Part shown: positions 4,297 to 64,000 of the stretch, one piece after another
Layout: every line of letters starts with the position of its first letter
Position numbering within the stretch: the stretch's first letter is position 1
Source of the DNA: a virus
Length of the DNA: 64,000 nucleotides
Virus record (IMG/VR): IMGVR_UViG_3300045988_175656
Reading direction: 5' to 3' (one strand)
Program-made: the position numbers and the translations under genes
Notes under the pieces: generated by a model
The model's database searches: none
Told to the model about the DNA's origin: nothing
Seen by the model: only the letters and a program-made list of their open reading frames with translations

Positions 4297-4327
4297 ATCT
4301 TAAAATCGTTTTAAATTTGAATTACGA

Positions 4328-4361: not shown

Positions 4362-5227
4362 TGGATAATAGAAAAATTTTGGGTATTTATGGTATATTAA
4401 TCTGTTTTACAATGAGAAAAGTAATTTTTAATAAGGATTATTTAACAATATTAAAAGAAAATTTACAGGAAAACCTATATGATGAAGTATCAATGAGCGA
4501 TATTAATCTCAATCCACTTGAACCAAAGCCACAACTTAATCCAAAATTTTGGATTAACGGAAAACTTAATTCAAAAGTGAGATTAAAATTAATGGATATT
4601 GCTGACGATTTCATTCAGACACTCAATGTTAAATGGGTAAAACCACTTGATATTGTGTTTACAGGTTCATTAGCTAATTATAATTGGACAAAATATTCTG
4701 ATATAGATGTACATGTAATTATGAATTATAAAGATGTGTATGAAAATATAGAGTTTGTAAAAGAATATTTTGAAATGAAAAAATATTCTTGGATGCAAGA
4801 CCATGACAATTTGAGAATATATGGCTTTCCAATCGAGTTATATGTTGAAAATTCAAATGATGCTGCTAATTCAAGTGGGGTTTATTCACTTGAAAAAAAC
4901 AAATGGGTTGTTGAACCAAAACCATTTAATGATAATGAATTTGATGAACAATATGTAAAGAAAACTGCTGCCAAGTTAATGACTCAGGTTGATGAACTAT
5001 CTGATATGATTGATGAAACTGATGATGATTACAAAATTGATATATTATCAAAAAAAGTTAAAAGATTAAATGATAAGGTAAAATTCATCAGACAAAAGTC
5101 TTTAAAGAAAGATGGTGAGATGGGAAATGGAAATATTATTTATAAAGTAATGAGAAATGCTGGATATATAGATAAGTTATGGGATTTAAAGTCAAAAACT
5201 TATGATAAATTAAATTCATTAAAATAA
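4361..5227 (+). CDS. Putative nucleotidyltransferase (Pol-beta fold)
   Basis: FTGSLANYNWTKYSDIDVHVI fits the GS-x(9-13)-DxD minimal NTase signature. A downstream acidic strand (PIELYVE) is also present. Confidence 0.5.
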   Translation: MDNRKILGIYGILICFTMRKVIFNKDYLTILKENLQENLYDEVSMSDINLNPLEPKPQLNPKFWINGKLNSKVRLKLMDIADDFIQTLNVKWVKPLDIVFTGSLANYNWTKYSDIDVHVIMNYKDVYENIEFVKEYFEMKKYSWMQDHDNLRIYGFPIELYVENSNDAANSSGVYSLEKNKWVVEPKPFNDNEFDEQYVKKTAAKLMTQVDELSDMIDETDDDYKIDILSKKVKRLNDKVKFIRQKSLKKDGEMGNGNIIYKVMRNAGYIDKLWDLKSKTYDKLNSLK

Positions 5228-48088: not shown

Positions 48089-51000
48089 ATGGGTAAAAGA
48101 TTGCAAATAAGAAATCATGCTGAAGTCTTTGATACAAGAGATTCAGCTTTAGCCTATATTAACGATATATACAAGGGTCAATCATTAGTTGCTGAACCAA
48201 CAGTTTATCTGTATGGTTCAGCCTTGAACCCTAATATTATTCTTGCTATTGGTTCAGTAGGTAATGGTTCATTAGCTGCTAAAAACAAAGTATTTTTAAT
48301 TGATACTGCAAGATTAGACGCTGATATTGCACAATTGAAACAAGATGTATCTGGTGATACTGAAAATATTCAAGATATTTTAACTAAATTAAATGCAGTT
48401 ATTGTTGGTTCAGGTCTTGATTCTGATGGTACTTATCAAGTAGATATTGATGATGATTTATTAAAAAAAGCAACATCATTAAATGATGCCATTAAAAAAT
48501 TATCTGCATCATTACAAGCAACTGCCAAAGCAACCGACTTAACAGTTAAAGATAGTGAAACTGTGCATTTAGAAACAACTAAGACAAGTACAGGTGTACT
48601 TTTACAAGCATTTTCGAAAATATCAGAATATGGTAAATTAGACCCTGATTTTAATGATAATATCCTTATCAAAATGTCAGATGGTTTATATGCAACAGTT
48701 GACTTATCTTATGATGAAAATACAGGTATTTTGACATTCACAGCATCTAAAACAAAAGATGATGGTACAGTAGGTGTTCGTATTATTGAGAAACAATTTA
48801 AAATTGGTTTACATACAACTATGAAATCAGTAAGTTATGACCCTGAAACTGAAACTTTAATTTTTATTTTAACAGATGCAGATGGCAATGAATATACTGA
48901 AGTTGTAGATGCAACTGGTTTAATCACTGAATGGGATGTTGAAAACAAAGTAGGTTCTGCTGTTTATTTAACTAAAACAAGAGTTAAAGATGGTCAAGAT
49001 AAACTTTCGGCTGATGTTATTATTTCAAGTGGTGATGGATGGAATATATTGGAAAAAAGTAAAACAACAGGTGGTTTATTTGTTAAAGGTTATGCAAATA
49101 ATATTAAATATAAAACTGATGTCACTGTTGAAAATGCTTTAGATACTTTAACATTAAATGACCAAACAAATTTAGCTGATGCAAAAGCATATACAGATGC
49201 ACAAGTATCTGCTGAAACTAACCGTGCCAAAGGTGCAGAACAAGTTTTAACAGATAATTTAGCTGCCGAAGTTACACGTGCAAAAGCTGCTGAAAAAGCT
49301 AATTCTGATGCAATTGCTATTATTAATGGTGATAATGATACTGTTGGTTCTATTAAAACTGCATTAAAAGATGCAAAAGCATATACAGACATTGAAACTG
49401 ACCGTGCCAAAGATGCAGAACAAGCATTACAAGTAGAATTAAATACATTAAATGGTAATGAAGCCGTTTCTGGGTCTGTTAAAAATGCAATATCAATTGC
49501 TAAACAATATACTGATACACAAGTAGATGCTGAACAAACTCGTGCTGAAGCTGCTGAACAAGTATTAACAAATGCTGTGACAATTATAAATGGTAATGAA
49601 GCACAAGAAGGTTCTATAAAAAATGCAATAGTTATCGCCAATGAGTACACTGATGAACAATTAGCACAACATGACCATGATTCATTAATTAAAATTGATG
49701 AATTAAGAGATGATTTAAATGCTGAAATTAAAAGAGCCACTATTACAGGAAAAGAAAGCAAATCATTATTAATGAATATTGCACAAGGTTCAACAGGAAC
49801 AACTATTTCAGGTGATGTTAAAATATCTACTATAACAGGTAATATTATATCAGAACAAGATGGTGGTATTTTTGCTTATGTAACATTAAAATATAATGCT
49901 GCGGAAAATGCTCTTTATTTTAACAATGGAACACCTGTTGATACTAAAATCCAATTATCATCTGCAAGTTTAGTTGATGATGCTTATTATGATGCAAACA
50001 CAAAAACAATTGTAATTGTATTTAATGATGCTGATAAAACAACTGTTAAAATTCCTGTTGGTGATTTAATTCCTACATTAGCTGTTGGTAGAGAAACAGG
50101 TAGTGCAGTTATTATGAGATTAGTTACTGAAGAAAATCTAAATACAATATATGCTGATGTCGATATTTCAACTGCATCTGTAAATATATTACAAAATGTT
50201 AATGGTGCTCTTTTAGTACGTGGTACTGCTGATAACATCAAATATGGACAAAACAGTAATGTTGAAACTGCTCTTGATAATTTAACATCAGCTTCAACAG
50301 GTAATTTAGCTGCTGCAAAAGCATATACTGATGAACAAGTTGCTATTGAAAAAGCTCGTGCAGAAGGTGTTGAAAGTACATTAAATACAACTATTCTTAA
50401 CAATACAACAAATCTTCAAGGTCAAATAACTGCTGAAGTTACACGTGCCACTAAAGCTGAAGAAGCAGAGACCAAACGTGCTGAAGCTGCTGAAGCTGCA
50501 TTAGATGCAAAAATTGGTGTTAACAGTGATGCTATCACCATCATTAATAGTGGTTCTGGTACTACTGGGTCAATCGCAAATGCTGTTGCTACTGCAAAAG
50601 CTGCCACTGATGCTGCAATTGAAAGTGAAAAAGATAGAGCAAAAGCTGCTGAAGCTGCATTAGATGCAAAAATTGCTATTATAAATGGTAGTGGTGTAGG
50701 CTCAATGTCTGACATTTTAGATAAAGCAAAAGCATACACTGATACTTCAATTGCCCCAATAGCAGGTCAAATTGAAAATGCTAAACAACAAGCAATTGCT
50801 GCTGCTGCAACTGATGCAACAACAAAAGCTGACAAAGCTAAACAAGAAGCAATTGCTGCTGCTGCAACTGATGCAACAACAAAAGCAAATTCTGCTGAAA
50901 CAAATGCAATTTCGGCTGCTGCAATTGATGCAACAACAAAAGCTGACAAAGCATTATCTGACGCAAAATTATTTACAACTTCTGCAACAACACAAGCATT

Positions 51001-51313
51001 GTCTGATGCAAAAGCATATACTGATGCACAACATATTTATGTAACAGGTGCTAGTGTAAATGCATCAACAAACATAATAACATTAGGTTTCCAAAACAGT
51101 GTTCAAACTGTTAATATTGACATTTCTTCAATAATCGAAGCTGCTGTAACTAGAGCTGTTACACAAGCTGTTGCGCAAGCTAAACAAGAAATTCAATATA
51201 CAATTGTTCCTACTTCTTCTACAAATGGTACAGTTGATAATAGTAAGAGTCCTCGTGAAATTTCTATTGATGTTACAAATGTTAACAATGGTACATATAC
51301 AAACACTCCTTAA
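48089..51313 (+). CDS. Large tail fibre protein with an internal module duplication and AKAYTD / ExxRAxxAE repeats
   Basis: Repeated (L)xDAKAYTDxQVxxExxRAxxAE motifs. Two homologous halves are visible (aa ~198 and ~592 onward). Confidence 0.8.
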   Translation: MGKRLQIRNHAEVFDTRDSALAYINDIYKGQSLVAEPTVYLYGSALNPNIILAIGSVGNGSLAAKNKVFLIDTARLDADIAQLKQDVSGDTENIQDILTKLNAVIVGSGLDSDGTYQVDIDDDLLKKATSLNDAIKKLSASLQATAKATDLTVKDSETVHLETTKTSTGVLLQAFSKISEYGKLDPDFNDNILIKMSDGLYATVDLSYDENTGILTFTASKTKDDGTVGVRIIEKQFKIGLHTTMKSVSYDPETETLIFILTDADGNEYTEVVDATGLITEWDVENKVGSAVYLTKTRVKDGQDKLSADVIISSGDGWNILEKSKTTGGLFVKGYANNIKYKTDVTVENALDTLTLNDQTNLADAKAYTDAQVSAETNRAKGAEQVLTDNLAAEVTRAKAAEKANSDAIAIINGDNDTVGSIKTALKDAKAYTDIETDRAKDAEQALQVELNTLNGNEAVSGSVKNAISIAKQYTDTQVDAEQTRAEAAEQVLTNAVTIINGNEAQEGSIKNAIVIANEYTDEQLAQHDHDSLIKIDELRDDLNAEIKRATITGKESKSLLMNIAQGSTGTTISGDVKISTITGNIISEQDGGIFAYVTLKYNAAENALYFNNGTPVDTKIQLSSASLVDDAYYDANTKTIVIVFNDADKTTVKIPVGDLIPTLAVGRETGSAVIMRLVTEENLNTIYADVDISTASVNILQNVNGALLVRGTADNIKYGQNSNVETALDNLTSASTGNLAAAKAYTDEQVAIEKARAEGVESTLNTTILNNTTNLQGQITAEVTRATKAEEAETKRAEAAEAALDAKIGVNSDAITIINSGSGTTGSIANAVATAKAATDAAIESEKDRAKAAEAALDAKIAIINGSGVGSMSDILDKAKAYTDTSIAPIAGQIENAKQQAIAAAATDATTKADKAKQEAIAAAATDATTKANSAETNAISAAAIDATTKADKALSDAKLFTTSATTQALSDAKAYTDAQHIYVTGASVNASTNIITLGFQNSVQTVNIDISSIIEAAVTRAVTQAVAQAKQEIQYTIVPTSSTNGTVDNSKSPREISIDVTNVNNGTYTNTP
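50780..50950 (+). repeat. 3 x 57-bp in-frame tandem repeat (AKQQAIAAAATDATTKADK units)
   Basis: Units at 50780-50836, 50837-50893 and 50894-50950. The first two differ at only a few positions. Confidence 0.85.
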
Positions 51314-51330
51314 TAAGAGTGCATATATAC

Positions 51331-51362
51331 GAAAAGGAGAGCAAAACTGCTCTCCTTTTTTA
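51331..51362. terminator. Bidirectional terminator between the tail fibre and DNA polymerase genes
   Basis: ggagagca / tgctctcc stem flanked by A4 and T6. Confidence 0.75.
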
Positions 51363-54300
51363 TTGCATACTTTCCATGTAACTATTATATTTTTCTTCTG
51401 AAATTTTATCAAAATCTTTATCAATAATATCAAAAATACTACCAATAGCCACTTTCCATTTTTTAGAAATAAAATTATTTGAATTTACATCTTCTTCAAC
51501 AATTTTCAATAATGAAGCTGGTAATTCACCTTCTTCCATAAACTCATTTACATCTTCTTTTGTTAAAGAGTCTATAATTTTGTTGTATGCTTCAACCTCT
51601 TCTTTAATTTCAGCTTCTTCTAATTGTTTTTGTCTTGCATCATAATCTTCAAGAACTTCCTGCCAATTAATTCCACATTCTTCAACAAATGGTGGTACTT
51701 CACCTGCTGATTTCCAAAATCTTATTTCTTTATCTTCAATAGTCATTAATTGTTCGTATGTATCTTGGTCAGTTGGTTTGTAAGGTTCTCCTGAAACCAA
51801 TTTTGATTGGTCAACAGTAAAATAATTTCTATCTTCTGGATTATTAATTAATATTTTATCTCTAATATCCTTAGAGAAACAAACTAATAATGGTTTGATA
51901 CGTTTATTAAACTGTTCCAAATATTTTTGTACATTATATTCAGTATCTTCATCACAAAATGTATCATTTTCATCTTCAACCACTTCATTATCAAGCAATA
52001 TACAATTAAAAATTAATTCATCTTCTTCAGTTAAATTAGGGTATTCAACTTTAGCACACTCCACTTTATCTTTATATACAGGTAAATCACGTTCATTATT
52101 TTTTACTTTTTTTCTATAAGCAGTCCACATTTTATCAACTTCTTTCGTAATTTCAACCTTTTCTTCGCCTTCGATTGTGTAGTAATGTGTTACTCTTTTA
52201 ACATCTGAATGTGATTTGGATTTTCCTGTGTTAATATAATATATTGCATCACCCATATGAACATTCAAATTATGTTTTATTGCCAATTCATACCAAGCTT
52301 GTCTCGCTTTTTTACTACCTGCTGCTGTAACGTTCCCACAATCTTTAATATATTCAGACAAATCTTTTTTAATTTTACCAACTGAAGCTATTTCTTTCAA
52401 TGGTATTTTCAAATTATATATTTTATCAATATAGTCATAATACATAATCAAAAATTCTTGACCTTTACCAAATAATAATAAATCAATTGCTTTATTCATG
52501 AATTTTTCTATATACAATGGCATTTTTTTAGATTTAATTGTATTACCAACTAATTTTGTTTTACCATTTTCCAAATAATCAGCATAATTTTTACGAGAGA
52601 AGTTAATAGTTGCTTGGGCATATTCATCAATACCAAGCCCCATTTTACCTCTCATAAATAAATCATTAAATTCAGCAACATCAGCTTCTACACCATGATA
52701 TTCTTGCCCTTCTTTTGTGTTACGATTAAGACCTTTTCCAATATAATGACGTTTATTTAGTTCTTCTTCAGGTGGCATTTGAAAGTTTACCCCATCAGTG
52801 TCCATTACAATAGGCTTATATCCTCTATCTTTAAACCACTTATTCATTAATCTTAATGATTGTCTGCCAATACAAGTTGTTTTTTCAGCACACATTAAAT
52901 CACCCCAATTAAATAAATTAGGAGCACCAAAACCACCAAAGAATGAATTACCAAATATTTTGAATGGCAACTGTTTTTTATCATTAGCTGATTCTTCAGA
53001 TTCATATTTTTGAAGTTCTTCTTTTAACAGTTTTAATTCCTCAGTTGTTCCTAAAAAAGTTTCAATATATTCTTTTTTCTTTTTAGCCTTTTTGCCTGCA
53101 ACGCTTTTCAAACCTTTGAATTTTTCACGTTCAGATAAAATATATTCCAATAAGGCTAACATAACACCTGAAATATCTTCACCTGTTGAAATCATCCAAC
53201 TTAAAATAATAGATGGATAAAGAGAATTATAGTCCAATTTAACAACTCTATCAACATATCCAACTGATAGAAGTCTTGATAAACCACCTGTAAATGCTCC
53301 AGATGATGCATATGATGGTAATGCAAGGTCATTTTCATAACTCCAAGCCAACATAATCATTTTCCATGTAGCTGCTGTACCCATTGTACACACTTTTCCA
53401 AAAGTCGTTGGAAGAAGTTTTCCCAATAAGAAATTAGACTGATTATATCTTAATTCTACTTTATCTGTTTCATATAAGTCATCCAACAAATATCTTTCAA
53501 CAATATATCTTCCAGTTGTCTTTACATATATTTCGTTTGTTGAATTATCTTTGATAGTGCCATCTTCCAATAAAGTGTAACGAATTTTTTCTTCAGTAAT
53601 TTCTTCAAATTTATTACCAGATGCAATTTCAGTTAATTTGTTTATTTCTTCTTCATGTTCTAATAATTCAGTTTTATCATGAATATAACTTTGAATTTCA
53701 GTGATTTTCTTTGAAGCGTTTTCAATTTCTTGTTCTGTATAAAAAGTTAACTGTTTCTTATCAATTACCTTATTATAAGTTTTGGAAAATGTCTTATCAG
53801 TTATTTTAAACCAGTGTCCATTTTCATCATTAAATGCATATTCATTTACAGTGTCAGCCCATGTAACATTAATATCATTACCTGGTACATAAACACGATT
53901 AGGCTTATTTAATTTAGAATATTTTGTGACATATTTCAAATCAGCCTTTTTCATGTTACTGTCTTGTGCTTGCGCTCTTCTAACAGCATGTAATGAATCA
54001 GTTACATTAAATCCCCAAATTACTGTTGGGTAATAATATTCAATTTCACCACCCAATTTAAGAACTGACTGTTTCTTTTTCTTATAAATTGATTTTGGAA
54101 AATATTTTGCACTTTCAATTTGCATAGAAGTTCCTAACAAAGCCAAACGTTTTATTAAAAAGTCCCAGTCAAAGTTCTCAGAGTTATGACCTGTTATAAC
54201 ATCAGGTTTTTCACTTCCAATTATTCTTAAACACTCTCTAATAGCTTCTAATTCATTTTGTAATCGTTCTTCACCTTCACCTGTAATGGTGATGATTTTT

Positions 54301-54911
54301 TCAAACCCCTTATTTGTTCTAATACCCACCTGATTGATAGCACATCTTTCTGCTTCCAACCCCTGGGTTTCCAAGTCCCATTCAAGACGTTTCAATTGGT
54401 CATAATCATCATATCCTTTGAATAACCGTTTACCCGTAGAAATCATAAATTGCTCAACAGGTGTAATTGCTAAAAATTCTTTACTACTTCCTGTTGAATT
54501 TTTATCATTAGAATATATTGGCTTTTTCCCTTCAACAAAGAATTGACTAAATTTTTTAAATGGCATTGAAAATTTAGCATAAAACATCACACGATAACCA
54601 TTTTCAAGACGTTCAGTAGTCTCCCCTTTGTTGTTGTAAATATTTAAGCCTTTAGTTGCAATACCATATTCAGCCATCTTCTTCATAAGCAGCTTTCTAT
54701 CTCCACCATATAATTGTCTTGCTGCTGATTGTTTTGCCCACACAAAAGGATAAAACGCTTCACGTTTCATTCTTTTAATACCTTTTGCATCATTATATAT
54801 AATGATAGCATCTTTATCATCATAACTGCACTCAATATTAATGATACGTTCCATTGGGTCATGCCCTTCAAGGAATTTATTGATTCTTTCAGAGGTTATT
54901 TTTTCTATCAT
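51360..54911 (-). CDS. Family B DNA polymerase with 3'-5' exonuclease domain (1183 aa)
   Basis: Exo I WDLETQG, Exo II HNSENFDWDFL, Exo III YLLDDLYETD, motif A LDYNSLYPSII, motif B KIFGNSFFGGFG, motif C VMDTDGV. Confidence 0.92.
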   Translation of the reverse strand: MIEKITSERINKFLEGHDPMERIINIECSYDDKDAIIIYNDAKGIKRMKREAFYPFVWAKQSAARQLYGGDRKLLMKKMAEYGIATKGLNIYNNKGETTERLENGYRVMFYAKFSMPFKKFSQFFVEGKKPIYSNDKNSTGSSKEFLAITPVEQFMISTGKRLFKGYDDYDQLKRLEWDLETQGLEAERCAINQVGIRTNKGFEKIITITGEGEERLQNELEAIRECLRIIGSEKPDVITGHNSENFDWDFLIKRLALLGTSMQIESAKYFPKSIYKKKKQSVLKLGGEIEYYYPTVIWGFNVTDSLHAVRRAQAQDSNMKKADLKYVTKYSKLNKPNRVYVPGNDINVTWADTVNEYAFNDENGHWFKITDKTFSKTYNKVIDKKQLTFYTEQEIENASKKITEIQSYIHDKTELLEHEEEINKLTEIASGNKFEEITEEKIRYTLLEDGTIKDNSTNEIYVKTTGRYIVERYLLDDLYETDKVELRYNQSNFLLGKLLPTTFGKVCTMGTAATWKMIMLAWSYENDLALPSYASSGAFTGGLSRLLSVGYVDRVVKLDYNSLYPSIILSWMISTGEDISGVMLALLEYILSEREKFKGLKSVAGKKAKKKKEYIETFLGTTEELKLLKEELQKYESEESANDKKQLPFKIFGNSFFGGFGAPNLFNWGDLMCAEKTTCIGRQSLRLMNKWFKDRGYKPIVMDTDGVNFQMPPEEELNKRHYIGKGLNRNTKEGQEYHGVEADVAEFNDLFMRGKMGLGIDEYAQATINFSRKNYADYLENGKTKLVGNTIKSKKMPLYIEKFMNKAIDLLLFGKGQEFLIMYYDYIDKIYNLKIPLKEIASVGKIKKDLSEYIKDCGNVTAAGSKKARQAWYELAIKHNLNVHMGDAIYYINTGKSKSHSDVKRVTHYYTIEGEEKVEITKEVDKMWTAYRKKVKNNERDLPVYKDKVECAKVEYPNLTEEDELIFNCILLDNEVVEDENDTFCDEDTEYNVQKYLEQFNKRIKPLLVCFSKDIRDKILINNPEDRNYFTVDQSKLVSGEPYKPTDQDTYEQLMTIEDKEIRFWKSAGEVPPFVEECGINWQEVLEDYDARQKQLEEAEIKEEVEAYNKIIDSLTKEDVNEFMEEGELPASLLKIVEEDVNSNNFISKKWKVAIGSIFDIIDKDFDKISEEKYNSYMESMQ

Positions 54912-54968
54912 AAATTACTATTTGATTTCTGTTTAAAAGTTAAGGTCACATTTCAATGACCATCATTT

Positions 54969-55006
54969 TTGCAAATATACAACTTAGTTTCAATTAAAGC
55001 CACAAA
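54969..55006 (-). promoter_or_regulatory. Bacteroidota-type promoter for the polymerase gene (GTTGTATATTTGCAA; -33 TTTG at a non-standard 23-nt spacing)
   Basis: Plus strand reads ttgcaaatatacaac at 54969-54983. The -7 box is at 54972-54979. Confidence 0.55.
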
Positions 55007-55055
55007 AAAATCGCATATATTTTATTACATGCGATTTTTAATATTATTTAATGAT

Positions 55056-55457
55056 TTACTTTTTTATAACACCATCCATGATATAAATCATCAATTCATC
55101 TTGGATTGGCATAATCAGTTCACCAACTGGGTATGTTTGTTCACCACTCACCAAATCGGGATTAAAGTCGATTTTAAATTGCCCTCGATATATACCAGGT
55201 TGTTTTGTGTCCCTTTCTTTCCATTCATATACAATTACAAATTCATTGACACAACTATTATTTTCACGTGGCACTATTGAAGCTTTTGCATTCGCAATTT
55301 TCATAATACCATTATCAACATTAGTCATTGAAAATGTAATAGAAGCGTTTTGTATCGCTTCATAAAATTTGTTGAAGTCATGTCTACCATCATTTATTAA
55401 CTCCATTCGAAGATGTGGTAAGACCGAGTTTTTATTTATATAAAATTCTTGTGCCAT
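55056..55457 (-). CDS. Hypothetical protein (beta-rich)
   Basis: ORF 1 nt downstream of the protease-like gene. Confidence 0.5.
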   Translation of the reverse strand: MAQEFYINKNSVLPHLRMELINDGRHDFNKFYEAIQNASITFSMTNVDNGIMKIANAKASIVPRENNSCVNEFVIVYEWKERDTKQPGIYRGQFKIDFNPDLVSGEQTYPVGELIMPIQDELMIYIMDGVIKK

Positions 55458-55458
55458 A

Positions 55459-56007
55459 TTAATTCATTGCTAAATCATTTTTTATTATACTATCTAATGG
55501 CATTACATTTCTATATATTGCTCGATTTTTAAAATCTACTGAGAAATCATATCTTATTAAATAATCTGAACCAATAATGCCAATTATTTCACGACCACAA
55601 GCACTTTTAATATTACTAATTACACCTCTCAAATCTGATGTCATAAATTGATGTTGTATTTTTACAGAATCACCCAATTCGCCTATTATATATGATGCTT
55701 GTACATCTTTACCGCCTGAAACACCATGAATAGTCAAATCAATATATTTAATAAATTGAAAATCATTTTTATGCTTCAAATAGTAAGTTTCATCTATTAA
55801 TGACATATTAGCTCCTGTATCAATAATAAAATATTTTTCTTCACCATTAACAGGAATATTTGTTATTGGTGTGTTTATGCCATCGTTTTCAGTCTGTTCG
55901 AAATAATATAAGAAATCAGTATTTTTCTTTCCATTATCACATGATGTTATACATAATGTACATAACATTGATAGCACTAAAAACAGTTTTACAATTTTTC
56001 TTTTCAT
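55459..56007 (-). CDS. Secreted lipoprotein with a retropepsin-like (clan AA) aspartic protease domain
   Basis: Signal peptide plus lipobox MKRKIVKLFLVLSMLCTLCITSC, the active-site-like FIIDTGANMSLID, and the distal IIGIIGSDYL flap/dimer motif. Confidence 0.65.
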   Translation of the reverse strand: MKRKIVKLFLVLSMLCTLCITSCDNGKKNTDFLYYFEQTENDGINTPITNIPVNGEEKYFIIDTGANMSLIDETYYLKHKNDFQFIKYIDLTIHGVSGGKDVQASYIIGELGDSVKIQHQFMTSDLRGVISNIKSACGREIIGIIGSDYLIRYDFSVDFKNRAIYRNVMPLDSIIKNDLAMN

Positions 56008-56022
56008 ATCTTTTTTATATTG

Positions 56023-56058
56023 TTTGCAAAATTAAAAATTTAATATATAATTTCCAAA
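56023..56058 (-). promoter_or_regulatory. Bacteroidota-type promoter (TTTG, 20-nt spacer, TAATTTTG)
   Basis: The -7 box is at 56027-56034 and the -33 element at 56055-56058 in minus sense. Confidence 0.45.
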
Positions 56059-56123
56059 TTTTAGAAGTTAATAATATTAAATTACTCCTAATATAAATAG
56101 CTTTTTTTAAAGCATAAAATAAA

Positions 56124-56132
56124 ACTATTTAT
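56124..56132 (+). promoter_or_regulatory. Candidate late-promoter motif ACTATTTAT
   Basis: Exact 9-mer 17 nt upstream of the ATG at 56149. Confidence 0.35.
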
Positions 56133-56148
56133 ATAAAAACATTATAAA

Positions 56149-57288
56149 ATGGCAATTGATAATGAAAAGAAAAAATTATTTCATCAGGTAAGAACTCGTT
56201 TAGGTGCAGGTGTAAGAGGTGTTGAAATTACTGATGACATGCTATGTGATTTGTTAGAAATGTGTGTTAATGATTATGCTGAGAAAGTACAAAATTGGAT
56301 AATCGAAAACCAATGGGCTAGCTTATATGGTAAAAATTTATCATCAACTGATATGGCATTTGCATTATCAGTTAGAACATTAGATTATATGAAAGATTAT
56401 TCTTATTGGTTTTCCAAAGAAGTTGGTTTACAACAAAGAGGACCTTGGGAATTAAAAAAAGATTATGTTGAAGTTGAAAAAGGTAAACAAGTTTATATTA
56501 TACCAGCAGGTAGAGAAATAAATAAAGTACTTTATACAACCCCCCCAACTTCACAAGCAGCTTTATTTGCTAATTATGCAGGTATTGATGTTGGTTTTGG
56601 TGGTGGTTATGCTCAGATTGGCGGTGGTGGGGTTGGCTCAGGACCTATTGGTGGATTTTATACAATGCCAGCATATGATACTGTATTATTATCTGCTGAC
56701 TTAGCATACAAAAACCGATTATTAAGGTCTGATTTAACTTATAAAGTAACAGCAGGACCAAATGGTACTAAATTATTACATTTATTATCCACTCCTGGCT
56801 CTAACTTATCATTTGGTTTTTCTGGACCTGGAATTGGTGTTGGTGCAGGTTTATGGGGAATGGTAGGATGTCAAGTATGGTACACTTATTATGATGTAAA
56901 TCCAGGGGATGAAGATGAATGTAGAAAGCAAAACCCCGATTTATTAATATCTCCTGACCAAGTACCTTTGGAAGAGATGGATTATTCATATTTAAACAGT
57001 CCAACTAAAACAATTGTACGTCAGTTATTGGTAGCAGAAGCAGCCCATACATTAGGTTTAGCTAGAGGTAAAAATTCTGGTAAAATTTCTATACCAATGG
57101 CAGAAATGCAAATGGATTATCAAATGTTATTAAATTTTGGCACAGATGAAAAGAAAAATGTAATGCAAAAATTAGAAGAGAGACTGTTAAGAATGTCACC
57201 TGCTGAAGTCATGAAGAGACAAGCTGAAATTGTTGAAGCAGCTATGCAAGCAAAACGTGGAGTACCACTTGGTTTATATGTAATATAA
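56149..57288 (+). CDS. Neck protein (T4 gp13-like)
   Basis: LFHQVRTRLGAGVRGVEITDDMLCDLLEMCVNDYAEKV parallels T4 gp13 [37 protein letters not shown]. Confidence 0.6.
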   Translation: MAIDNEKKKLFHQVRTRLGAGVRGVEITDDMLCDLLEMCVNDYAEKVQNWIIENQWASLYGKNLSSTDMAFALSVRTLDYMKDYSYWFSKEVGLQQRGPWELKKDYVEVEKGKQVYIIPAGREINKVLYTTPPTSQAALFANYAGIDVGFGGGYAQIGGGGVGSGPIGGFYTMPAYDTVLLSADLAYKNRLLRSDLTYKVTAGPNGTKLLHLLSTPGSNLSFGFSGPGIGVGAGLWGMVGCQVWYTYYDVNPGDEDECRKQNPDLLISPDQVPLEEMDYSYLNSPTKTIVRQLLVAEAAHTLGLARGKNSGKISIPMAEMQMDYQMLLNFGTDEKKNVMQKLEERLLRMSPAEVMKRQAEIVEAAMQAKRGVPLGLYVI

Positions 57289-57291
57289 AAT

Positions 57292-57312
57292 AAGGGAGCA
57301 GTTGCTCCCTTA
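57292..57312. terminator. Hairpin between convergent genes
   Basis: gggagca-gt-tgctccc. Confidence 0.5.
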
Positions 57313-57317
57313 TATCT

Positions 57318-57770
57318 TTATACCCAAGACATTAACAATCCTCTTTTGGCTAAAATTAATTCAACATCCACTAATGGCATACCAAAATGAAATACTAAAC
57401 GACCCTCTTCAGGATATTCAAAATCAGGGTCATTATCAGGATTATCTAGGTTTTCAGAAGCCAATGCAATACAATTATCTCTACAATCTTGCATTGAAAA
57501 GCACATATTATCTTGCGCCAAATCAAATTTTATATTATAAATTTTTAATTCCTTTATAATTTCATATTGAGAATCTTCAAATAAAAAATCACCTGCAATA
57601 CCACTAGGCTTTTCTTCAAAACCTTCAGCCCAAAATGATTCTTTTTGTGCATCATCGCCAAATAAAAATTGATACAATCTTCTACCATCCACATCAGTTC
57701 CTTTTTCCCTAACGTATAGAAGTCTCATATCATCATAATTTTCAACATCATCTAACATATTATATATCAA
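57318..57770 (-). CDS. Hypothetical acidic protein
   Basis: ORF overlapping the upstream gene by 11 nt. Confidence 0.5.
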   Translation of the reverse strand: MIYNMLDDVENYDDMRLLYVREKGTDVDGRRLYQFLFGDDAQKESFWAEGFEEKPSGIAGDFLFEDSQYEIIKELKIYNIKFDLAQDNMCFSMQDCRDNCIALASENLDNPDNDPDFEYPEEGRLVFHFGMPLVDVELILAKRGLLMSWV

Positions 57771-58290
57771 TTACTTTGTTATTTTTAATAAAATTGATAA
57801 AGACCATTGCACAAGCTTCTGCATCAGCAAGAGCATTATGATAATTTTTTAAATCATAGCCAATATCTTCACATAATATATTTAGTTTGTGTGAATCTAA
57901 ATGTTTATTATATTTTCTTGATAATTTTAACGTATCAATATATTGATAATCATTGTTAGTATCAAATGCTCGTGAACAAGCATTAATGCAGCTTTTCTCA
58001 AATGCGGCATTATGAGCAACAATTGGTGAATTACCAATCATTTTATCTACTTTTTCCCACACTTCAGGAAATTTAGGGGAATTTTTAACATCTTTATATT
58101 GCAGTCCATGAGCAGCAACACAATGTTTTTCAAAATATTTTGTCTGTGGATTTATTAAACTATAAAATTTATCTACAATTTTACAGTTCTCTACTATAAC
58201 AACACCAACAGAACACACAGTTTCACGATAACCATTTGCGGTTTCAAAATCTATTACTGCAAACCTATTGTTTGTTTTTCTTTTTACCAT
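57760..58290 (-). CDS. DnaQ-like DEDDh 3'-5' exonuclease
   Basis: Exo I AVIDFETAN, Exo II VAHNAAFEKSCI, Exo III HNALADAEAC. Confidence 0.8.
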   Translation of the reverse strand: MVKRKTNNRFAVIDFETANGYRETVCSVGVVIVENCKIVDKFYSLINPQTKYFEKHCVAAHGLQYKDVKNSPKFPEVWEKVDKMIGNSPIVAHNAAFEKSCINACSRAFDTNNDYQYIDTLKLSRKYNKHLDSHKLNILCEDIGYDLKNYHNALADAEACAMVFINFIKNNKVIDI

Positions 58291-58447
58291 ACATTTTTAA
58301 GTCTTTTAAAATTTCTGAATTAATTAGTTCTTCCATTTTTGGTGAAAGTTTTCCATATGAGTTTAAACTACAATTAAATGTAGTTGATTCAGAAAGAATT
58401 TTTTCAACATCTTTTAGAGTTAGTACTTTAAACACATTACTTTTCAT
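58265..58447 (-). CDS. Small hypothetical protein (60 aa) bridging the helicase and exonuclease genes
   Basis: ORF overlaps both neighbours (11 and 26 nt), so its coding status is uncertain. Confidence 0.35.
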   Translation of the reverse strand: MKSNVFKVLTLKDVEKILSESTTFNCSLNSYGKLSPKMEELINSEILKDLKMYGKKKNKQ

Positions 58448-61406
58448 TTTCGCTTTTTATAACTGCTTTTATTATATCTTCTTTGGACATTACCTTTTCC
58501 CACATTTCAAGGGAAATATCATCATCAAATAGTTGATAATAAACAGTCACATCTTCTGTTTGTGATAAACGGTGTACTCTATCCATAACTTGCCAATTAT
58601 CAGATGGAACCCATGAATAAGAATTAAATATACAAATATGGCTTTTTGTCAATGTAATACCAACCCCTGAAGCAAGAATTTGACCTATGAAAACTTTCTT
58701 TTTGGGGTTATTCATAAATTCATATTCAGCTTTATCTTTTTGAGCATTGGTTTTCTTACCATCATAAACAACCGCCATATCACCAAAATGCTCTTTAAAT
58801 TTTTTCACTTCATTTTCAAAGCAACAAACAATTAGCACTTTTTCACCATCTTCAATATGTTCTTCTGCTAATGAAATTGTATTCTCAATCATTTTATTGG
58901 CTAAATATCTTCTCACAAGACCACCCTCAATGAGTTCTTGGTATTTAGAAACATCAACACCTGTTAAATATTGTGCATTTAAATAATCTTGCCATAATTT
59001 ACGATATTCAGCCATTTCATCATCAGTTAAAGTGTAATAACGAGTGAAAATAGTTTTTTTAACCATTCCAGGAATATCTTTTTGTAATCGCCTAATATAT
59101 AAATGTTTAATTTTTTCTCTTAATTCATCCAAATTACTTGCGCCATCACAAATTTTTATCTTAGTTCCATCAGATTTATTTATAGTTTTTGCATCACAAA
59201 ATCTATCCATATAATAATCATAGTTTTTTGCTATATCAGCATCAATTAATTTTAAAATGTGATATAAATTAAGTGGTCTATTTGTCAATGGAGTTCCTGT
59301 TATACAATATATTGCTTTTGGTTTTGTTCTATTTAAAAAATCATCTAATGTTTTATATCTGATTGAAGTATTATTAGCCAATTTTTGTACTTCATCAATA
59401 ATAACCAAATCAAACTGAGCAAGAAACAATTGGCTCTTAGATAAAGCTTCTTTGATTACTTCTTTTTTGCGAGATTTTTTCATTTTTGGTTCCATTTCTC
59501 CATTTTTTCCTTTTTTACCTTTGCATTTGACCATTATAGGAACTTTGATTTTTTTATTTTTCCCATTTTCGTCTTTATATGTTTCAATTCTATAATCAGG
59601 TTCTAATGGAATATGATAAAAATTATCCAATATATCATAATTTATTACAGTATATTGTTTGTCTGACACCCACTTTTTACCAAAAATAATACCAATATTA
59701 TCTGGATTTGTATAATAAGATAATTCTCGCTTCCAAGTACCTTTTAAAGACGCAGGACATATAATTAACACTTTTTTATATCCACCTGCCATAGATGCCA
59801 CGATAGCTGAAGTGGTGTTATGTGTCACTATATAATTTTCTGTCAAATATGAACTATCATCTGAATCTACTCTTATACAAACTGCATCAGCTTTTCTAAC
59901 TAATTCTACTTTTTCGATATATCTAGAACAATAATTGTTTTTCTTGATGTTATAGTTTTGTTTTTTTCTTTCAATTTTAAAAGGACAAAATTTTATATTA
60001 ATTTTTACATCATACTCAATAGATTTACCTTCATTAGTTCTATCATAACTATGTATAATTGCATGACCACCTAATGAATATACAAGCATCTGTATATCTC
60101 TAGCCAATTTTTCAGAAGTGGTATAATAATGCATTTTATTATTTTTACAAATAGAACCATCAGAATCCATTAACCCCATTAACAATTCTTTACGTTGTTC
60201 AATTGAACCATTCATATATTCTTCAGGTATGAATTTGTATTTTCCTAATACATTTAACCCCAAACGTTTGATTTCTCTATTATATTCATTAATTGGTGTT
60301 TTTTCTTTTTGAATTATATAGTAATGGGGGCATGATGCATTTCTGTTTTCAGATAAAGTATATTTCTCATTTAATAATTTTTTAATTCTATCTACACTTT
60401 CATATTCAAAATCAGGTATTGATAATTCTATTTTATTACTGCACATTGAGCTATCACCAATACACATTCCAAGTATATATGGATGTATAAAATATTCTTT
60501 TTTAGAGTAATTAACAGGTTCACACATTGGTATTTCCCATTTATTCACTGGTTTATATCCATAATCAACTCTTTTTTTAGAGGAATTGTATTGTAAACCA
60601 CTATCAAGTAATTCTTTTAATGATTTAACAACCCACCCTTTCTTCCTCAATCTTCTATTACTATCTCTAACAATCCATAAATGTTCTAAACCACAATTAC
60701 ATTTAACTCCATCAGAAAAAGTAATTTCGTAAATATCTTTTACTCCTTGTGGAAATATACCTATAACATTATGAGATTTTCCGTCTGAACCAAAAACTTT
60801 GTCTCCAATTTTTAATTCCCCCATTTTTCTCCATCCATGAGGTGTTGGTATTGAAGTGTTTACATCCACTAGTTTTCCGAGACCTTGTTCATCCGCAAGA
60901 ATGGCTTTATTTCTTGTTATAAGGAACTTTACGGCTTCTTCTTGATGTGGCTTCAATGAACGATTCAAATGGGCTGTAAGCGCATTATATGGAGTAAAAT
61001 CAATATCGTTTGTTTTATAATCTTTAACAAAAATATCATCCATTAATGCTTTTTTAGGAACAAATGTTAATAATGGTTCTATTACTGATTTTCTATATCT
61101 TACATAACAATGATAACTATCACCCATCTCACCTATAATAGACATTATAAGTAACTTTTCAGGAATAAAATCTATATCATTTTTATCTGCAAATGATTTT
61201 CCAAACCAATCTGTTATTTTAATGGTTTTGTTTACCTTTATAGGAGCATACTGATAATTTTCCAATATATATTTTATATCAAACTCTGATAATTTTCGAT
61301 AGCCTTTATCTGAAAGGTTCTTCAGATAAGTTACATATAAATTAGTTCCATCATAATTTCTTATGATGGAGTATGCTTCTTCTATTTTAGATACACTAAT
61401 TGCCAT
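58437..61406 (-). CDS. SNF2-family helicase/ATPase interrupted by an intein in motif I
   Basis: LKPHQEEAVKFL (Q/Ia), ADEQGLGK|...|TTSAIV (motif I restored after excision), DLVIIDEVQKL (DEAH-like motif II), and C-terminal helicase motifs including SGVGITLT and QVMDRVHRLSQ. Confidence 0.88.
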   Translation of the reverse strand: MAISVSKIEEAYSIIRNYDGTNLYVTYLKNLSDKGYRKLSEFDIKYILENYQYAPIKVNKTIKITDWFGKSFADKNDIDFIPEKLLIMSIIGEMGDSYHCYVRYRKSVIEPLLTFVPKKALMDDIFVKDYKTNDIDFTPYNALTAHLNRSLKPHQEEAVKFLITRNKAILADEQGLGKLVDVNTSIPTPHGWRKMGELKIGDKVFGSDGKSHNVIGIFPQGVKDIYEITFSDGVKCNCGLEHLWIVRDSNRRLRKKGWVVKSLKELLDSGLQYNSSKKRVDYGYKPVNKWEIPMCEPVNYSKKEYFIHPYILGMCIGDSSMCSNKIELSIPDFEYESVDRIKKLLNEKYTLSENRNASCPHYYIIQKEKTPINEYNREIKRLGLNVLGKYKFIPEEYMNGSIEQRKELLMGLMDSDGSICKNNKMHYYTTSEKLARDIQMLVYSLGGHAIIHSYDRTNEGKSIEYDVKINIKFCPFKIERKKQNYNIKKNNYCSRYIEKVELVRKADAVCIRVDSDDSSYLTENYIVTHNTTSAIVASMAGGYKKVLIICPASLKGTWKRELSYYTNPDNIGIIFGKKWVSDKQYTVINYDILDNFYHIPLEPDYRIETYKDENGKNKKIKVPIMVKCKGKKGKNGEMEPKMKKSRKKEVIKEALSKSQLFLAQFDLVIIDEVQKLANNTSIRYKTLDDFLNRTKPKAIYCITGTPLTNRPLNLYHILKLIDADIAKNYDYYMDRFCDAKTINKSDGTKIKICDGASNLDELREKIKHLYIRRLQKDIPGMVKKTIFTRYYTLTDDEMAEYRKLWQDYLNAQYLTGVDVSKYQELIEGGLVRRYLANKMIENTISLAEEHIEDGEKVLIVCCFENEVKKFKEHFGDMAVVYDGKKTNAQKDKAEYEFMNNPKKKVFIGQILASGVGITLTKSHICIFNSYSWVPSDNWQVMDRVHRLSQTEDVTVYYQLFDDDISLEMWEKVMSKEDIIKAVIKSENEK
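59817..60872 (-). mobile_element. Intein (352 aa) with a LAGLIDADG homing-endonuclease domain; class-3-like (no N-terminal Cys/Ser)
   Basis: Begins LVDVNTSIPTPHGW right after GLGK and ends IVTHN followed by Thr+1. LAGLIDADG blocks are YILGMCIGDSS and LLMGLMDSDGS. Trp in block B (EHLW), Cys in block F (AVCIRVD) and Thr in block G (VTHN). Confidence 0.8.
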
Positions 61407-61423
61407 TATTTTAAACCATGTTT

Positions 61424-61457
61424 TTGCAAATATACGACTTATTCATCATATTTACAA
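61424..61457 (-). promoter_or_regulatory. Bacteroidota-type promoter for the SNF2 gene (AGTTGTAAA, 20-nt spacer, GTCGTATATTTGCAA)
   Basis: Plus strand reads ttgcaaatatacgac at 61424-61438. The -7 box is at 61427-61434 and TTG at 61455-61457. Confidence 0.6.
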
Positions 61458-61465
61458 CTATTTAT
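61457..61465 (+). promoter_or_regulatory. Candidate late-type motif ACTATTTAT in a divergent region
   Basis: Exact 9-mer 16 nt upstream of the ATG at 61481. Confidence 0.3.
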
Positions 61466-61480
61466 TTTAAAATATTCGAT

Positions 61481-61981
61481 ATGGCTAAAGTAATTTTTGC
61501 CCCTAATAAACTTGATAAAAATAAATTTACAATATTTTTAGCTGGTAGTATAGATATGGGGAAAGCTAAAGATTGGCAACAAGAAATTGAGGATAAATTA
61601 AAAGATGAAGATGTCATACTTTTTAATCCACGCAGACCTGATTGGGATTCATCATGGGAAGAATCAATCACAAACTCACAATTTAGAGAACAAGTGGAAT
61701 GGGAATTAAATGCTTTAGAAGAAGCTGATATGATTGTTGTTTATTTTGACCCTAAAGGAAAAGCCCCTATTACATTAATGGAACTTGGTTTACATAAAGA
61801 TGACAAAATTGTTGTATGTTGTCCTGAAGGTTATCATAAAAAAGGTAATGTAGATGTTGTTTGTCACAAATACAACATAAAACAAGTAGATGATATAGAT
61901 GGATTGGTTAAAGAAATAAAAACTGAAGCATTTACCTTAGATGAATCTATTTGTAATAAGTTTAAACAATTGATTAAATAA
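61481..61981 (+). CDS. Nucleoside 2-deoxyribosyltransferase-like protein
   Basis: FTIFLAGSI...WQQEI...LEEADMIVVYFDPKGKAPITLMELGL follows the YLAG...W...aD-hhh...S/T-x-G-T-x-x-E-h-G pattern of the Nuc_deoxyrib_tr-like families. The ATG at 61481 is preferred over 61418. Confidence 0.6.
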   Translation: MAKVIFAPNKLDKNKFTIFLAGSIDMGKAKDWQQEIEDKLKDEDVILFNPRRPDWDSSWEESITNSQFREQVEWELNALEEADMIVVYFDPKGKAPITLMELGLHKDDKIVVCCPEGYHKKGNVDVVCHKYNIKQVDDIDGLVKEIKTEAFTLDESICNKFKQLIK

Positions 61982-62499
61982 TGAGTAATATAATACCAAT
62001 TAACAGAAATAATAAGTTTTTCTCAAAAGAAGATTTTGATTTTGAGTTAGAACTTGGGATGGAATATCTTCAAGAAGATGTCAATCAAAGTATTATTCTC
62101 TACGAAGTCGATTTAGAAGCCACTAATATGAATGCTGTTTATAAAGAATCTAATCGTAATAATATTAGATTTAAAACCCCAAAAGAATTAACAGTCATAT
62201 ATGAAATAGAAGCACCAAGAACAAAATCATATGAAAATAAAACAAGTGGTGGTATTTATTCAATTAATGGTAATTTAAAAATTGGTGTGTTTCAAAAAAC
62301 TTTAAATGACCAAAATTGTGAAATCAAAAGGGGCGACTATATCGGAATTGCCATTGATTCAGAAAGAATGGCATACTTTGTTGTTACTGATGATGGAAAA
62401 TTGAACACTGATAATGCACATACAATGTGGGGAACAAAACCAATATTTAGAAGTATTGAAGCCACCCCAGTAGATAATAATGAATTTAATGGAATGTAA
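61981..62499 (+). CDS. Hypothetical protein (structural module by context)
   Basis: ORF with a TAATG overlap to the previous gene. Confidence 0.55.
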   Translation: MSNIIPINRNNKFFSKEDFDFELELGMEYLQEDVNQSIILYEVDLEATNMNAVYKESNRNNIRFKTPKELTVIYEIEAPRTKSYENKTSGGIYSINGNLKIGVFQKTLNDQNCEIKRGDYIGIAIDSERMAYFVVTDDGKLNTDNAHTMWGTKPIFRSIEATPVDNNEFNGM

Positions 62500-62500
62500 A

Positions 62501-63625
62501 ATGCCTAGACAATTTTTAAATAAAATGAAACTTCGTGAAAAAGCTATTGGTAGAGATAGAAGGGAGAATTTTGCAAAAGAAATTCTTTACAAAGACACTC
62601 CACTTCCTAAACCATTAGAATATACTGATATTGATGCATCATTTAAAGATTTTGTGAGTGATACATTAGATATTGCATATGAGGGCAAAAGATTACCAAC
62701 ATTCACATTATTTAGCAATCAGCGTTTTTCTGAATATTCCCAAACATGGGAACATGTTGATGAAAACAGAAATTTATTAATGAATTTTAAAACAATAAGC
62801 CGTGAAAATAATCCTAGATTTGGAGAAAATCAAGGTGGATTATGGAACATACCAGGAGAAAGACATTATACAATATTAACAAAAACGGTTCTTGATGATA
62901 ATGGTACTGAAAGTTTTGAAAGATATTCTATGAAACAACCTTATGCTGTTGATTTAATTTATAATATTAATTTGATAACTAATAAATATGAACTGATTAA
63001 TAAATTCAATGCACTTGTTAATGAAGCTTTTAAAGCAAGACAATGCTATATTAGACCAAATGGGCATTTCATTCCAATGATATTAGATGAAATTTCAGAT
63101 GAAAGTGAATATAGTATTGAGGACCGTAAGTTCTTTTCTCAAACTTTTACTATTAAAGTAATGGCATATATTATTCATGAAAAAGATTTTCAAGTAGAAT
63201 CCTACCCAAAAAGAATAATGGTGGTATATGATGGAGATGCTAAAAAGAAAAAGCCAAATGTTGATATTGAAGAATTAGATGATATTAATTATGAAAATAA
63301 AAGAATTGACATTTCAATTGATTTCCCTGAATTTATTGAAACTGTAACATTTACAATTGATTGCGATGTTAATGTTGAAAAATCTACATTGGATAATATA
63401 AGATATTATAGATTAAATGTTAATGGAACACCAATATTTCCAGAAAAAGGATTTATATTAAAAGAAAATGATGAAGTTAAATTAAGAATTTTTAAATTTG
63501 ACATTTCACAACCTTCAAAGTTAATGTTTCATGGATATGACCCAAATATTCGTTTAAAGAAAAATTACACTCCTGAATTAGTGAGTGATGAAAAATCTAA
63601 TTATGAAGAGATTATTGTTGACTAA
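62501..63625 (+). CDS. Hypothetical structural protein; weak resemblance to T4 gp15 tail completion / sheath stabiliser
   Basis: The start is moved to the ATG 2 nt after the upstream stop. The pattern MKQPYAVDLIYNINLITNKYELINKFNALVNEAF loosely parallels gp15 NPSPIKMIYELSIFTRYEDDMFQIVEQILPYF. Confidence 0.5.
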   Translation: MPRQFLNKMKLREKAIGRDRRENFAKEILYKDTPLPKPLEYTDIDASFKDFVSDTLDIAYEGKRLPTFTLFSNQRFSEYSQTWEHVDENRNLLMNFKTISRENNPRFGENQGGLWNIPGERHYTILTKTVLDDNGTESFERYSMKQPYAVDLIYNINLITNKYELINKFNALVNEAFKARQCYIRPNGHFIPMILDEISDESEYSIEDRKFFSQTFTIKVMAYIIHEKDFQVESYPKRIMVVYDGDAKKKKPNVDIEELDDINYENKRIDISIDFPEFIETVTFTIDCDVNVEKSTLDNIRYYRLNVNGTPIFPEKGFILKENDEVKLRIFKFDISQPSKLMFHGYDPNIRLKKNYTPELVSDEKSNYEEIIVD

Positions 63626-63656
63626 GAACTTTATGTATATTATTTTTTAAATAAAA

Positions 63657-64000
63657 ATGGATTTAAAATTATACGAAATAATAAATTTAGAACAGGCAAT
63701 TGATGAATTAATTAAATATGATTTATCTTTTACATTTAAAGTTTCATTAGATATAATGCGGAACAAGGAAGCTTGTAAAAATATTACTGATTTATTTTTC
63801 AACAGAATGTCAAAAATATTTGATAGTTATGAAAAATTATATGATGCATCTTTAAGAACTGAAGAAGAATCTATTATATTTAATGAAGCTTTGAATACGA
63901 CTGTTGATGTACACATTAAACAATTATCTGTTAATGATATAGTAATTGAAGATAATGTTAAAGTAAAATTAGTTTTATTTAATAATCTAAAACCAATGTT
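63657..64000 (+). CDS. 5' part of a rightward gene that runs out of the window (MDLKLYEIINLEQAIDELIKYD...)
   Basis: Hand translation shows 114 codons with no stop to the window end. Confidence 0.45.
   Translation, partial: MDLKLYEIINLEQAIDELIKYDLSFTFKVSLDIMRNKEACKNITDLFFNRMSKIFDSYEKLYDASLRTEEESIIFNEALNTTVDVHIKQLSVNDIVIEDNVKVKLVLFNNLKPM

Follow-up and report, generated by a model that had tools for sequence, protein, structure and literature searches.

A predicted class 3 intein with an embedded LAGLIDADG endonuclease at the P-loop of an SNF2 helicase from an uncultured T4-like phage

The viral record IMGVR_UViG_3300045988_175656 of IMG/VR supplies a stretch of 64,000 nucleotides (nt), here called the window, in which positions 58437–61406 encode the precursor of an SNF2-family helicase of 989 amino acids (aa) that is interrupted by an intein; this gene and all of its parts lie on the minus strand. 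The gene appears in the list of open reading frames (ORFs) as a single ORF of 2,970 nt without stop codons or frameshifts. Pfam assigns to the product an SNF2-rel_dom domain at residues 154–806 that extends across the insert (E = 3.5e-22), a Helicase_C domain at residues 847–947 (E = 8e-10), and a LAGLIDADG_3 domain at residues 404–469 (E = 9.6e-9); the Hom_end_hint model matches the precursor only below threshold, with 20.7 bits against a cut-off of 32.1 bits. The N-extein (residues 1–178; 60873–61406) ends in the Walker A stretch ADEQGLGK, with Lys178 encoded at 60873–60875, the intein (residues 179–530; 59817–60872) comprises 352 aa from Leu1 to Asn352, and the C-extein (residues 531–989 and the stop codon; 58437–59816) begins with the +1 residue Thr (59814–59816), which completes GLGK-T. 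At the protein level the junctions, marked here and below by a slash, read KAILADEQGLGK/LVDVNTSIPTPHGW...ENYIVTHN/TTSAIV, and Walker A is split as GLGK/L...THN/TTS. The host protein, composed of the SNF2 ATPase domain and Helicase_C, has a whole GLGKT motif only with the intein removed. The G+C content of the insert is 27.4%, compared with 28.4% in its flanks and 28.5% in the window.

Alleles of this gene were sought with the conceptually spliced helicase, i.e., the 637-aa protein that is left when the insert is deleted, as the query. The intein-less allele P0001, which has 311 member sequences and is 99% identical to the query, carries an uninterrupted GLGKTTSAIV and has exactly the length predicted for the window helicase minus the insert. 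Intein-less alleles were found at 99, 95, 88, 81, and 71% identity, all of them 637 aa long with GLGKT/S intact (in this one case the slash denotes alternative residues), and the stretch of the insert is missing from P0001 and P0003–P0006. The N-extein is collinear with the intein-less allele (P0001 and L005), and at the DNA level the window reads GGAAAA/CTAGTG...CATAAC/ACCACT where the empty allele L005 reads GGAAAA/ACTACT. The insertion is therefore 1,056 nt long and in frame, its boundaries are unambiguous, and residue 1 is Leu (codon CTA), because this comparison leaves no ambiguity as to the position of the insertion; a mis-set junction concealing a nucleophile is rejected on the same ground. 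The intein-less allele thus locates the two junctions with single-nucleotide precision and marks the homing site. The empty site in L005, the putative homing target, reads ...GGTCTTGGAAAA/ACTACTTCAGCT..., with GATGAGCAAGGTCTTGGAAAA/ACTACTTCAGCTATTGTGGCA as the candidate nuclease target, and the allele sequence over the empty site is GATGAGCAAGGTCTTGGAAAAACTACTTCAGCTATTGTGGCA. The original prediction, made from the DNA sequence without database searches, had placed the insert at 59817–60872, had derived GLGKTTSAIV by removing residues 179–530, and had described an N-terminal junction lacking the canonical nucleophile; each of these statements agrees exactly with the natural alleles, and the search for intein-less relatives that it had recommended as a way to define the homing site has done so. 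An intein occupies the same helicase site in P0002, P0010, P0011, P0012, P0055, and P0121, among which P0002 is a sister allele about 99% identical to that of the window and represents a cluster of 59 member sequences. In all contigs the helicase gene lies between the same two neighbors, a nucleoside deoxyribosyltransferase-like gene and a gene for an RNase T-like exonuclease. We also considered a free-standing endonuclease gene at this position and rejected it, as the insert is in frame, lacks stop codons, and is flanked by Hint lobes on both sides. The gene should be annotated as one intein-containing helicase and never as a helicase fragment plus an endonuclease.

Class 3 inteins, whose definition and mechanism have been set out in detail (PMC2807308; PMC3196547; PMC5222942), have a non-nucleophilic residue 1, co-varying Trp, Cys, and Thr residues (WCT) at position 12 of block B (B:12), F:4, and G:5, and Thr or Ser at position +1 (PMC2807308; PMC3196547). 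They splice by way of a branched thioester on the block F Cys, so that Cys F:4 is obligatory. The original prediction had correctly named WCT as the defining signature and the inteins of a mycobacteriophage DnaB (MP-Be) and of the Deinococcus radiodurans (Dra) Snf2 protein as the prototypes (PMC2807308; PMC3196547). These inteins reside in helicase-type proteins, mostly at the ATPase P-loop (PMC2807308; PMC3196547), where Lys/Thr is a "classic" intein insertion site (PMC5050341). In the window, the Hint N-lobe (intein residues 1–100, blocks A and B; 60573–60872) was recognized by phmmer matches to gp41-1, MchDnaB1, and MsmDnaB1 (E = 1e-8 to 6e-12), and the Hint C-lobe (intein residues 306–352, blocks F and G; 59817–59957) by alignment to MchDnaB1. 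At the DNA-fixed junction stands the non-nucleophilic Leu1 (60870–60872); block B contains EHLW at residues 241–244, in which Trp244 at B:12 (60675–60677) lies two residues past His242 (60681–60683); block F contains DAVCIRVD at residues 507–514 with Cys510 at F:4 (59877–59879); the intein ends in VTHN at residues 527–530 with Thr528 at G:5 (59823–59825), His529 (59820–59822), and Asn530 (59817–59819); and the +1 residue, Thr531, is the Thr of Walker A.

When the PDB sequences were searched with phmmer, the five significant matches were the engineered variant gp41-1_WCT (6riz; E = 6e-12), MchDnaB1 (6rix and 6riy; E about 1e-9), gp41-1 (6qaz), and MsmDnaB1 (6bs8; E = 2.5e-8). By match score, the class 3 DnaB1 inteins are among the nearest natural inteins with a solved structure, and the class 1 intein gp41-1 scores equally. 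In the HMMER alignments, in which the C-terminal stretches are individually weak, His242, Trp244, Cys510, and Thr528 pair with His65, Trp67, Cys124, and Thr143 of MchDnaB1 (6rix), the residues named in that intein as its catalytic triad and its WCT Trp (PMC7664689), and His529 and Asn530 pair with its His144 and Asn145; Cys510 also pairs with Cys107 of gp41-1_WCT, and Leu1 with Cys1 of gp41-1. The placement of the Trp and Cys in blocks B and F, as well as the numbering of W244, C510, N530, and both LAGLIDADG motifs, was thus right from the outset. In an alignment of 35 relatives (A1), H64, W66, C332, T350, H351, and N352 (intein numbering) are the only splicing-domain positions that never vary, and among about 230 relatives the Trp is conserved in 98%, the block F Cys in 100%, and the terminal Thr-His-Asn in at least 99%. 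Block B also holds Cys238 (intein Cys60; 60693–60695) at position 6, four residues before the His, where the family has Cys in 79% of cases; Cys236 is a further Cys close to it, and class 1 gp41-1 likewise carries a Cys at block B position 6.

To delimit the family, we ran phmmer against 1.84 billion representative proteins (50%-identity clusters) and obtained 18,461 matches at E values of 1e-3 or less, 13,060 at 1e-10 or less, and 4,642 clusters at 1e-30 or less. The hosts are varied P-loop ATPases, including SNF2, PhoH-like, AAA_24/AAA_30, UvrD-like, DnaB, and "terminase" proteins, and relatives occur also in phages in culture, whose hosts include Brevundimonas, Bacteroides, and Vibrio. For the most part the family occupies GK/T or GK/S P-loops in ATPases of phages. 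This P-loop location agrees with how class 3 inteins have been described in print, and the window intein is a further member of a very large, already described family. Many representatives of 1,200–2,200 aa contain two to four copies of the intein match (P0175, P0181, P0187, P0190, P0195, P0203, and others), and multi-intein ATPases are common in metagenomic data. Residues were counted in 198 complete domains from about 200 retrieved proteins. W, C, and T are all present in 192 of the 198; the full consensus His..Trp..Cys..Thr-His-Asn is found in 189 domains, of which 156 have Thr and 33 have Ser at +1; and 139 of the 192 WCT domains have GK at positions –2/–1.

Residue 1 behaves differently from these positions. 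Among the WCT domains it is A in 75, E in 43, S in 13, Q in 13, P in 9, and L in 7, besides others, and at the 150 junctions that are corroborated by a preceding [GSA]K it is A in 65, E in 42, Q in 13, S in 9, L in 4, D in 4, C in 3, F in 3, G in 3, M in 2, and R in 2. Cys or Ser stands there in P0010, in P0125, and in 19 of 192 WCT relatives. Even within the clade of inteins from this helicase, residue 1 is Leu (window and P0011), Cys (P0010), Glu (P0012 and P0055), or Ala (P0121). It is the most variable junction position of the family, and Leu is a minority state (about 3%) and no anomaly; the description of Leu1 as unusual holds in that the residue is uncommon but is overstated for a position that varies freely. 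Such free variation is predicted by a mechanism that does not use residue 1. The P0010 intein, located in L007, shares 86% identity with the window intein, and its Cys codon, TGT, differs from the Leu codon CTA of the window at all three nucleotides, hence by no simple point change.

Between the Hint lobes lies the LAGLIDADG homing-endonuclease domain (intein residues about 101–305; 59958–60572), which was identified by both Pfam (LAGLIDADG_3) and Foldseek. Motif 1, YILGMCIGDSS (residues 310–320; 60447–60479), contains Asp318 (60453–60455) and the atypical Ser319 (60450–60452) at its last Gly position, and motif 2, LLMGLMDSDGS (residues 408–418; 60153–60185), contains Asp416 (60159–60161), so that, with the caveat of Ser319, the two catalytic Asp residues expected of a monomeric two-motif LAGLIDADG enzyme, one at the end of each LAGLIDADG helix of the alpha-beta-beta-alpha-beta-beta-alpha fold, are both in place. 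The domain is full length and keeps the invariant residues G135, K213, P216, R227, G233, L234, D236, D238, G239, and G268 (intein numbering). The homing endonuclease had been called intact, which is borne out for its length and its two catalytic Asp residues but not for Ser319. An AlphaFold2 model of the intein, built from a 35-sequence alignment, has a mean predicted local distance difference test score of 93.9 and a predicted template modeling (TM) score of 0.91. The top Foldseek match of this model in the PDB is PI-SceI (E = 9e-18, TM 0.72), followed by the TliVMA and PhoVMA inteins and PI-PfuI; I-DmoI is matched by the nuclease domain, and MchDnaB1, MsmDnaB1, and gp41-1 by the Hint domain.

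Comparison with known systems places the window intein closest in organization to the DnaB intein of mycobacteriophage Bethlehem (MP-Be), the Dra Snf2 intein, and the gp206 intein of mycobacteriophage Catera (PMC2807308), with which it shares the non-nucleophilic residue 1, WCT at B:12, F:4, and G:5, the block B His, the C-terminal His-Asn, the +1 Thr, a LAGLIDADG nuclease of similar size, and a P-loop site in a helicase-type ATPase. W67, C320, T339, and N341 of MP-Be correspond to W66, C332, T350, and N352 of the window intein, which differs from the three in its Leu1, in the predicted status of its splicing, and in belonging to another phage lineage that is T4-like, uncultured, and AT-rich (28.5% GC). 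The DnaB1 class 3 inteins of Mycobacterium chimaera and M. smegmatis, MchDnaB1 and MsmDnaB1 (6rix, 6riy, and 6bs8), are among its closest solved Hint domains (E = 1e-9 to 2.5e-8), equaled or exceeded only by gp41-1, and also interrupt a helicase P-loop; each of their catalytic residues His, Trp, Cys, and Thr has its aligned counterpart, but they are mini-inteins without a nuclease in bacterial DnaB, unlike the nuclease-containing intein of the phage SNF2 protein. A Cys of MsmDnaB1 that reportedly has a redox-regulatory role is replaced in the window intein by the aligned Ile47. Class 3 inteins were reportedly found by Tori and Perler in 2011 to form a monophyletic clade. Although gp41-1_WCT is the best PDB sequence match and gp41-1 (6qaz) shares the C-x-x-E-H-L of block B and the THN C-terminus, gp41-1 is a naturally split class 1 intein without a nuclease. 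PI-SceI, the VMA1 intein (1vde), has the same two-domain architecture of Hint plus LAGLIDADG but is a eukaryotic class 1 intein with Cys1, is about 100 aa larger with an extra DNA-recognition region, and is only 15–18% identical.

Selection was assessed by comparing the window with two diverged alleles that also carry the intein, L007 and L009; the ratio of nonsynonymous to synonymous substitution rates (dN/dS) is 0.09–0.17 for Hint-N, 0.14–0.17 for the nuclease, 0.03–0.05 for Hint-C, and 0.08–0.15 for the exteins. Purifying selection has therefore acted on the host gene and on both intein functions, which speaks against a dead gene; a pseudogene is rejected on this evidence. In the same comparisons the intein is 80–94% identical at the aa level (synonymous divergence, dS, 0.46–0.96) and the C-extein 65–67% (dS 1.6–2.4), which suggests that the intein was transferred between helicase alleles later than those alleles diverged. 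Between the window and L005, 16 of 45 nucleotide differences fall within –120 to +150 nt of the insertion site, an interval that was chosen post hoc and makes up 14% of the length (binomial p = 2.7e-4); the first 414 nt are without a difference. This clustering is compatible with a co-conversion tract but only suggestive of one. The helicase is also mosaic relative to L008, with a dS of 0.144 in the N-extein and 0.008 in the C-extein, and relative to L005, from which it differs only beyond the identical first 414 nt; such mosaic alleles indicate recombination among co-circulating phages.

The reading that we favor, with a probability of about 0.88, is that the insert is an active class 3 intein that encloses a LAGLIDADG homing endonuclease and sits at the P-loop of the SNF2 helicase of a T4-like phage, between the Lys and the Thr of Walker A. 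An active intein appears most likely because of the way in which residues are conserved, because the exteins are under selection, and because an intein-bearing allele is in circulation. By analogy with the family, the thiol of Cys510 would attack the Lys178–Leu179 bond with the help of His242 and Trp244, and the N-extein would shift onto Cys510 as a thioester, giving the block F branched intermediate. Transesterification would then move the N-extein to the hydroxyl of Thr531 (+1), cyclization of Asn530 assisted by His529 would free the intein, and an O-to-N acyl shift would form the Lys178–Thr531 bond, remaking GLGKT and yielding an active 637-aa helicase. During co-infection, the nuclease domain would cut intein-less alleles at the empty site, and repair would copy the intein into the cut allele; we propose that the presence/absence polymorphism in near-identical phages is due to such homing.

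Several observations weigh against this reading. Ser319 occupies a position that is Gly in 218 of 230 relatives (95%) and in the sister allele P0002, and, given this residue, nuclease activity is uncertain; we put the predicted activity of the window copy at roughly even odds. The intein differs from that of the 99%-identical sister L008 by 1 synonymous and 5 nonsynonymous changes, and its nuclease domain by 0 and 4, small numbers that are compatible with relaxed selection on the nuclease. As for mobility, the alleles are mosaic and the interval around the insertion site was chosen post hoc, so ordinary recombination could contribute to the clustering of differences. Splicing of the window precursor is itself predicted from sequence, and the WCT triplet is insufficient alone: grafted onto gp41-1 it gave cleavage but no splicing (PMC7664689), and a natural intein of the class 3 clade whose triplet reads WDT is a pseudogene that does not splice (PMC3196547). 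The chief rival has a class 3-type intein that still splices and a nuclease that is already inactive; instead of homing actively, the element would be inherited vertically as a passenger and would be passing through the decay phase of the homing cycle. Ser319 and the differences from L008 would fit such a history, as would the progressive decay of the nuclease in close relatives, where P0010 lacks 10 aa, P0011 lacks about 49 aa, and the insert of P0012 is only 254 aa with a motif 2, LLKGAVLNSYS, devoid of the motif 2 Asp residues. The full-length domain with D318, D416, and all other invariant residues, the occurrence of Ser at the motif 1 Gly position in three natural relatives, the confident model of this region, and the long-term nuclease dN/dS of 0.14–0.17 argue for a functional enzyme, and we consider the inactive-nuclease history a serious contender, though somewhat short of an even chance.

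The remaining alternatives concern splicing. That the element is a dead intein, formerly of class 1, which lost Cys1, no longer splices, and leaves the helicase gene non-functional might be suspected, as Leu1 makes the class 1 acyl shift impossible, P0010, a close relative, starts with Cys at this position, and WCT is no guarantee of splicing. Yet every class 3 catalytic position is intact, and these positions are invariant in a family whose residue 1 varies freely; the exteins are under strong purifying selection, with 16 synonymous and 2 nonsynonymous differences from L008 in addition to the low dN/dS relative to L007 and L009; the intein-bearing cluster counts 59 member sequences; and the 2,970 nt hold no stop codon or frameshift. 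This possibility is very unlikely. Splicing by the standard class 1 or class 2 pathway, with direct attack by the +1 Thr and a purely structural role for Cys510, could appeal to class 2 inteins, which likewise lack an N-terminal nucleophile, and to the Cys or Ser at position 1 of some WCT inteins, but class 2 inteins by definition lack WCT and are known only in KlbA (PMC2807308; PMC3196547), conservation of W, C, and T in the family is essentially 100%, and the nearest solved natural relatives besides class 1 gp41-1 are the class 3 DnaB1 inteins, and we find such a route hardly credible. Mycobacterial DnaB1 class 3 inteins have reportedly been found to sense oxidative stress and zinc. Conditional splicing could likewise control the phage helicase post-translationally, in the manner of a switch, possibly by reversible oxidation or metal binding through Cys510 with Cys238 or the neighboring Cys236, or possibly by kinetics slowed by the bulky Leu1. 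The fast class 1 intein gp41-1 also has the block B position 6 Cys, however, which suggests that this residue may be structural, and we regard a switch as improbable.

The window belongs to a T4-like tailed phage, as shown by its genes for the Gp23 capsid protein, the Gp20 portal, a terminase of the T4 type, and a DNA polymerase of family B; sheath genes adjoin the helicase locus in related contigs. A megablast search of window positions 50000–64000 against GenBank phages gave zero matches, and hence no close cultured relative. Cellular genome contigs searched with the single intein as the query gave 98 pattern matches, none of which was confirmed by tblastn, and thus no close relative and no host inference. 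No second copy of the intein was found in the window by tblastn with about 40 family inteins, no other Hint domain by Pfam in its other large ORFs, and no tRNA genes by ARAGORN. The phage matches of the DNA polymerase are Salinibacter phages only, at about 27% identity, and the capsid protein matches an uncultured 484-kb phage and then Microcystis, Flavobacterium, and Rhodothermus phages at 34–40%. An 802-aa ORF at 45645–48053 (plus strand) contains a Fib_succ_major domain (PF09603; E = 1.5e-12), a domain typical of surface proteins of Fibrobacter and Bacteroidota; its product is probably a tail or receptor-binding protein and gives a weak hint of host range. Taken together, the polymerase, capsid, and Fib_succ_major evidence is weakly compatible with a Bacteroidota host but non-diagnostic, so the label "Bacteroidota-type phage" in the original prediction goes further than these data.

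Other genes of this phage group have features of their own. The family B DNA polymerase (51360–54911, minus strand) is unusually long at 1,183 aa, and its Pfam matches are only short (exonuclease at residues 210–259 and polymerase at 507–696). For the Gp23-type capsid protein (19434–21395, plus strand; 653 aa), Pfam and tblastn match two pieces that cover about half of the protein, with the best stretch at residues 370–643, which implies that several hundred residues may have been inserted into its N-terminal half; neither a Hint nor a nuclease domain was detected there. In L007, the nucleoside 2-deoxyribosyltransferase-like gene (positions 3456–4994, minus strand) encodes 512 aa instead of the usual about 166–187 aa and bears a different, class 1-type intein with a LAGLIDADG match and the junctions RRPDWD/CVDCETK...FLTGN/SSWEES; its homolog in the window (61418–61981, plus strand) is intein-free at PDWD/SSWEES.

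Our results are a confirmation rather than a discovery, as the presence of class 3 inteins at the P-loops of phage helicases was already reported in 2010–2011 and the family now counts thousands of clusters. Whether an AT-rich class 3 intein with a defined 40-bp target could serve as a tool for protein engineering is a question that the locus raises. What it offers is an unusually clean natural series of intein-less alleles, full-length inteins, Leu1, Cys1, Glu1, and Ala1 starts, and progressively degraded nucleases, a series convenient for asking what residue 1 contributes to class 3 splicing and for studying the homing cycle in uncultured T4-like phages.

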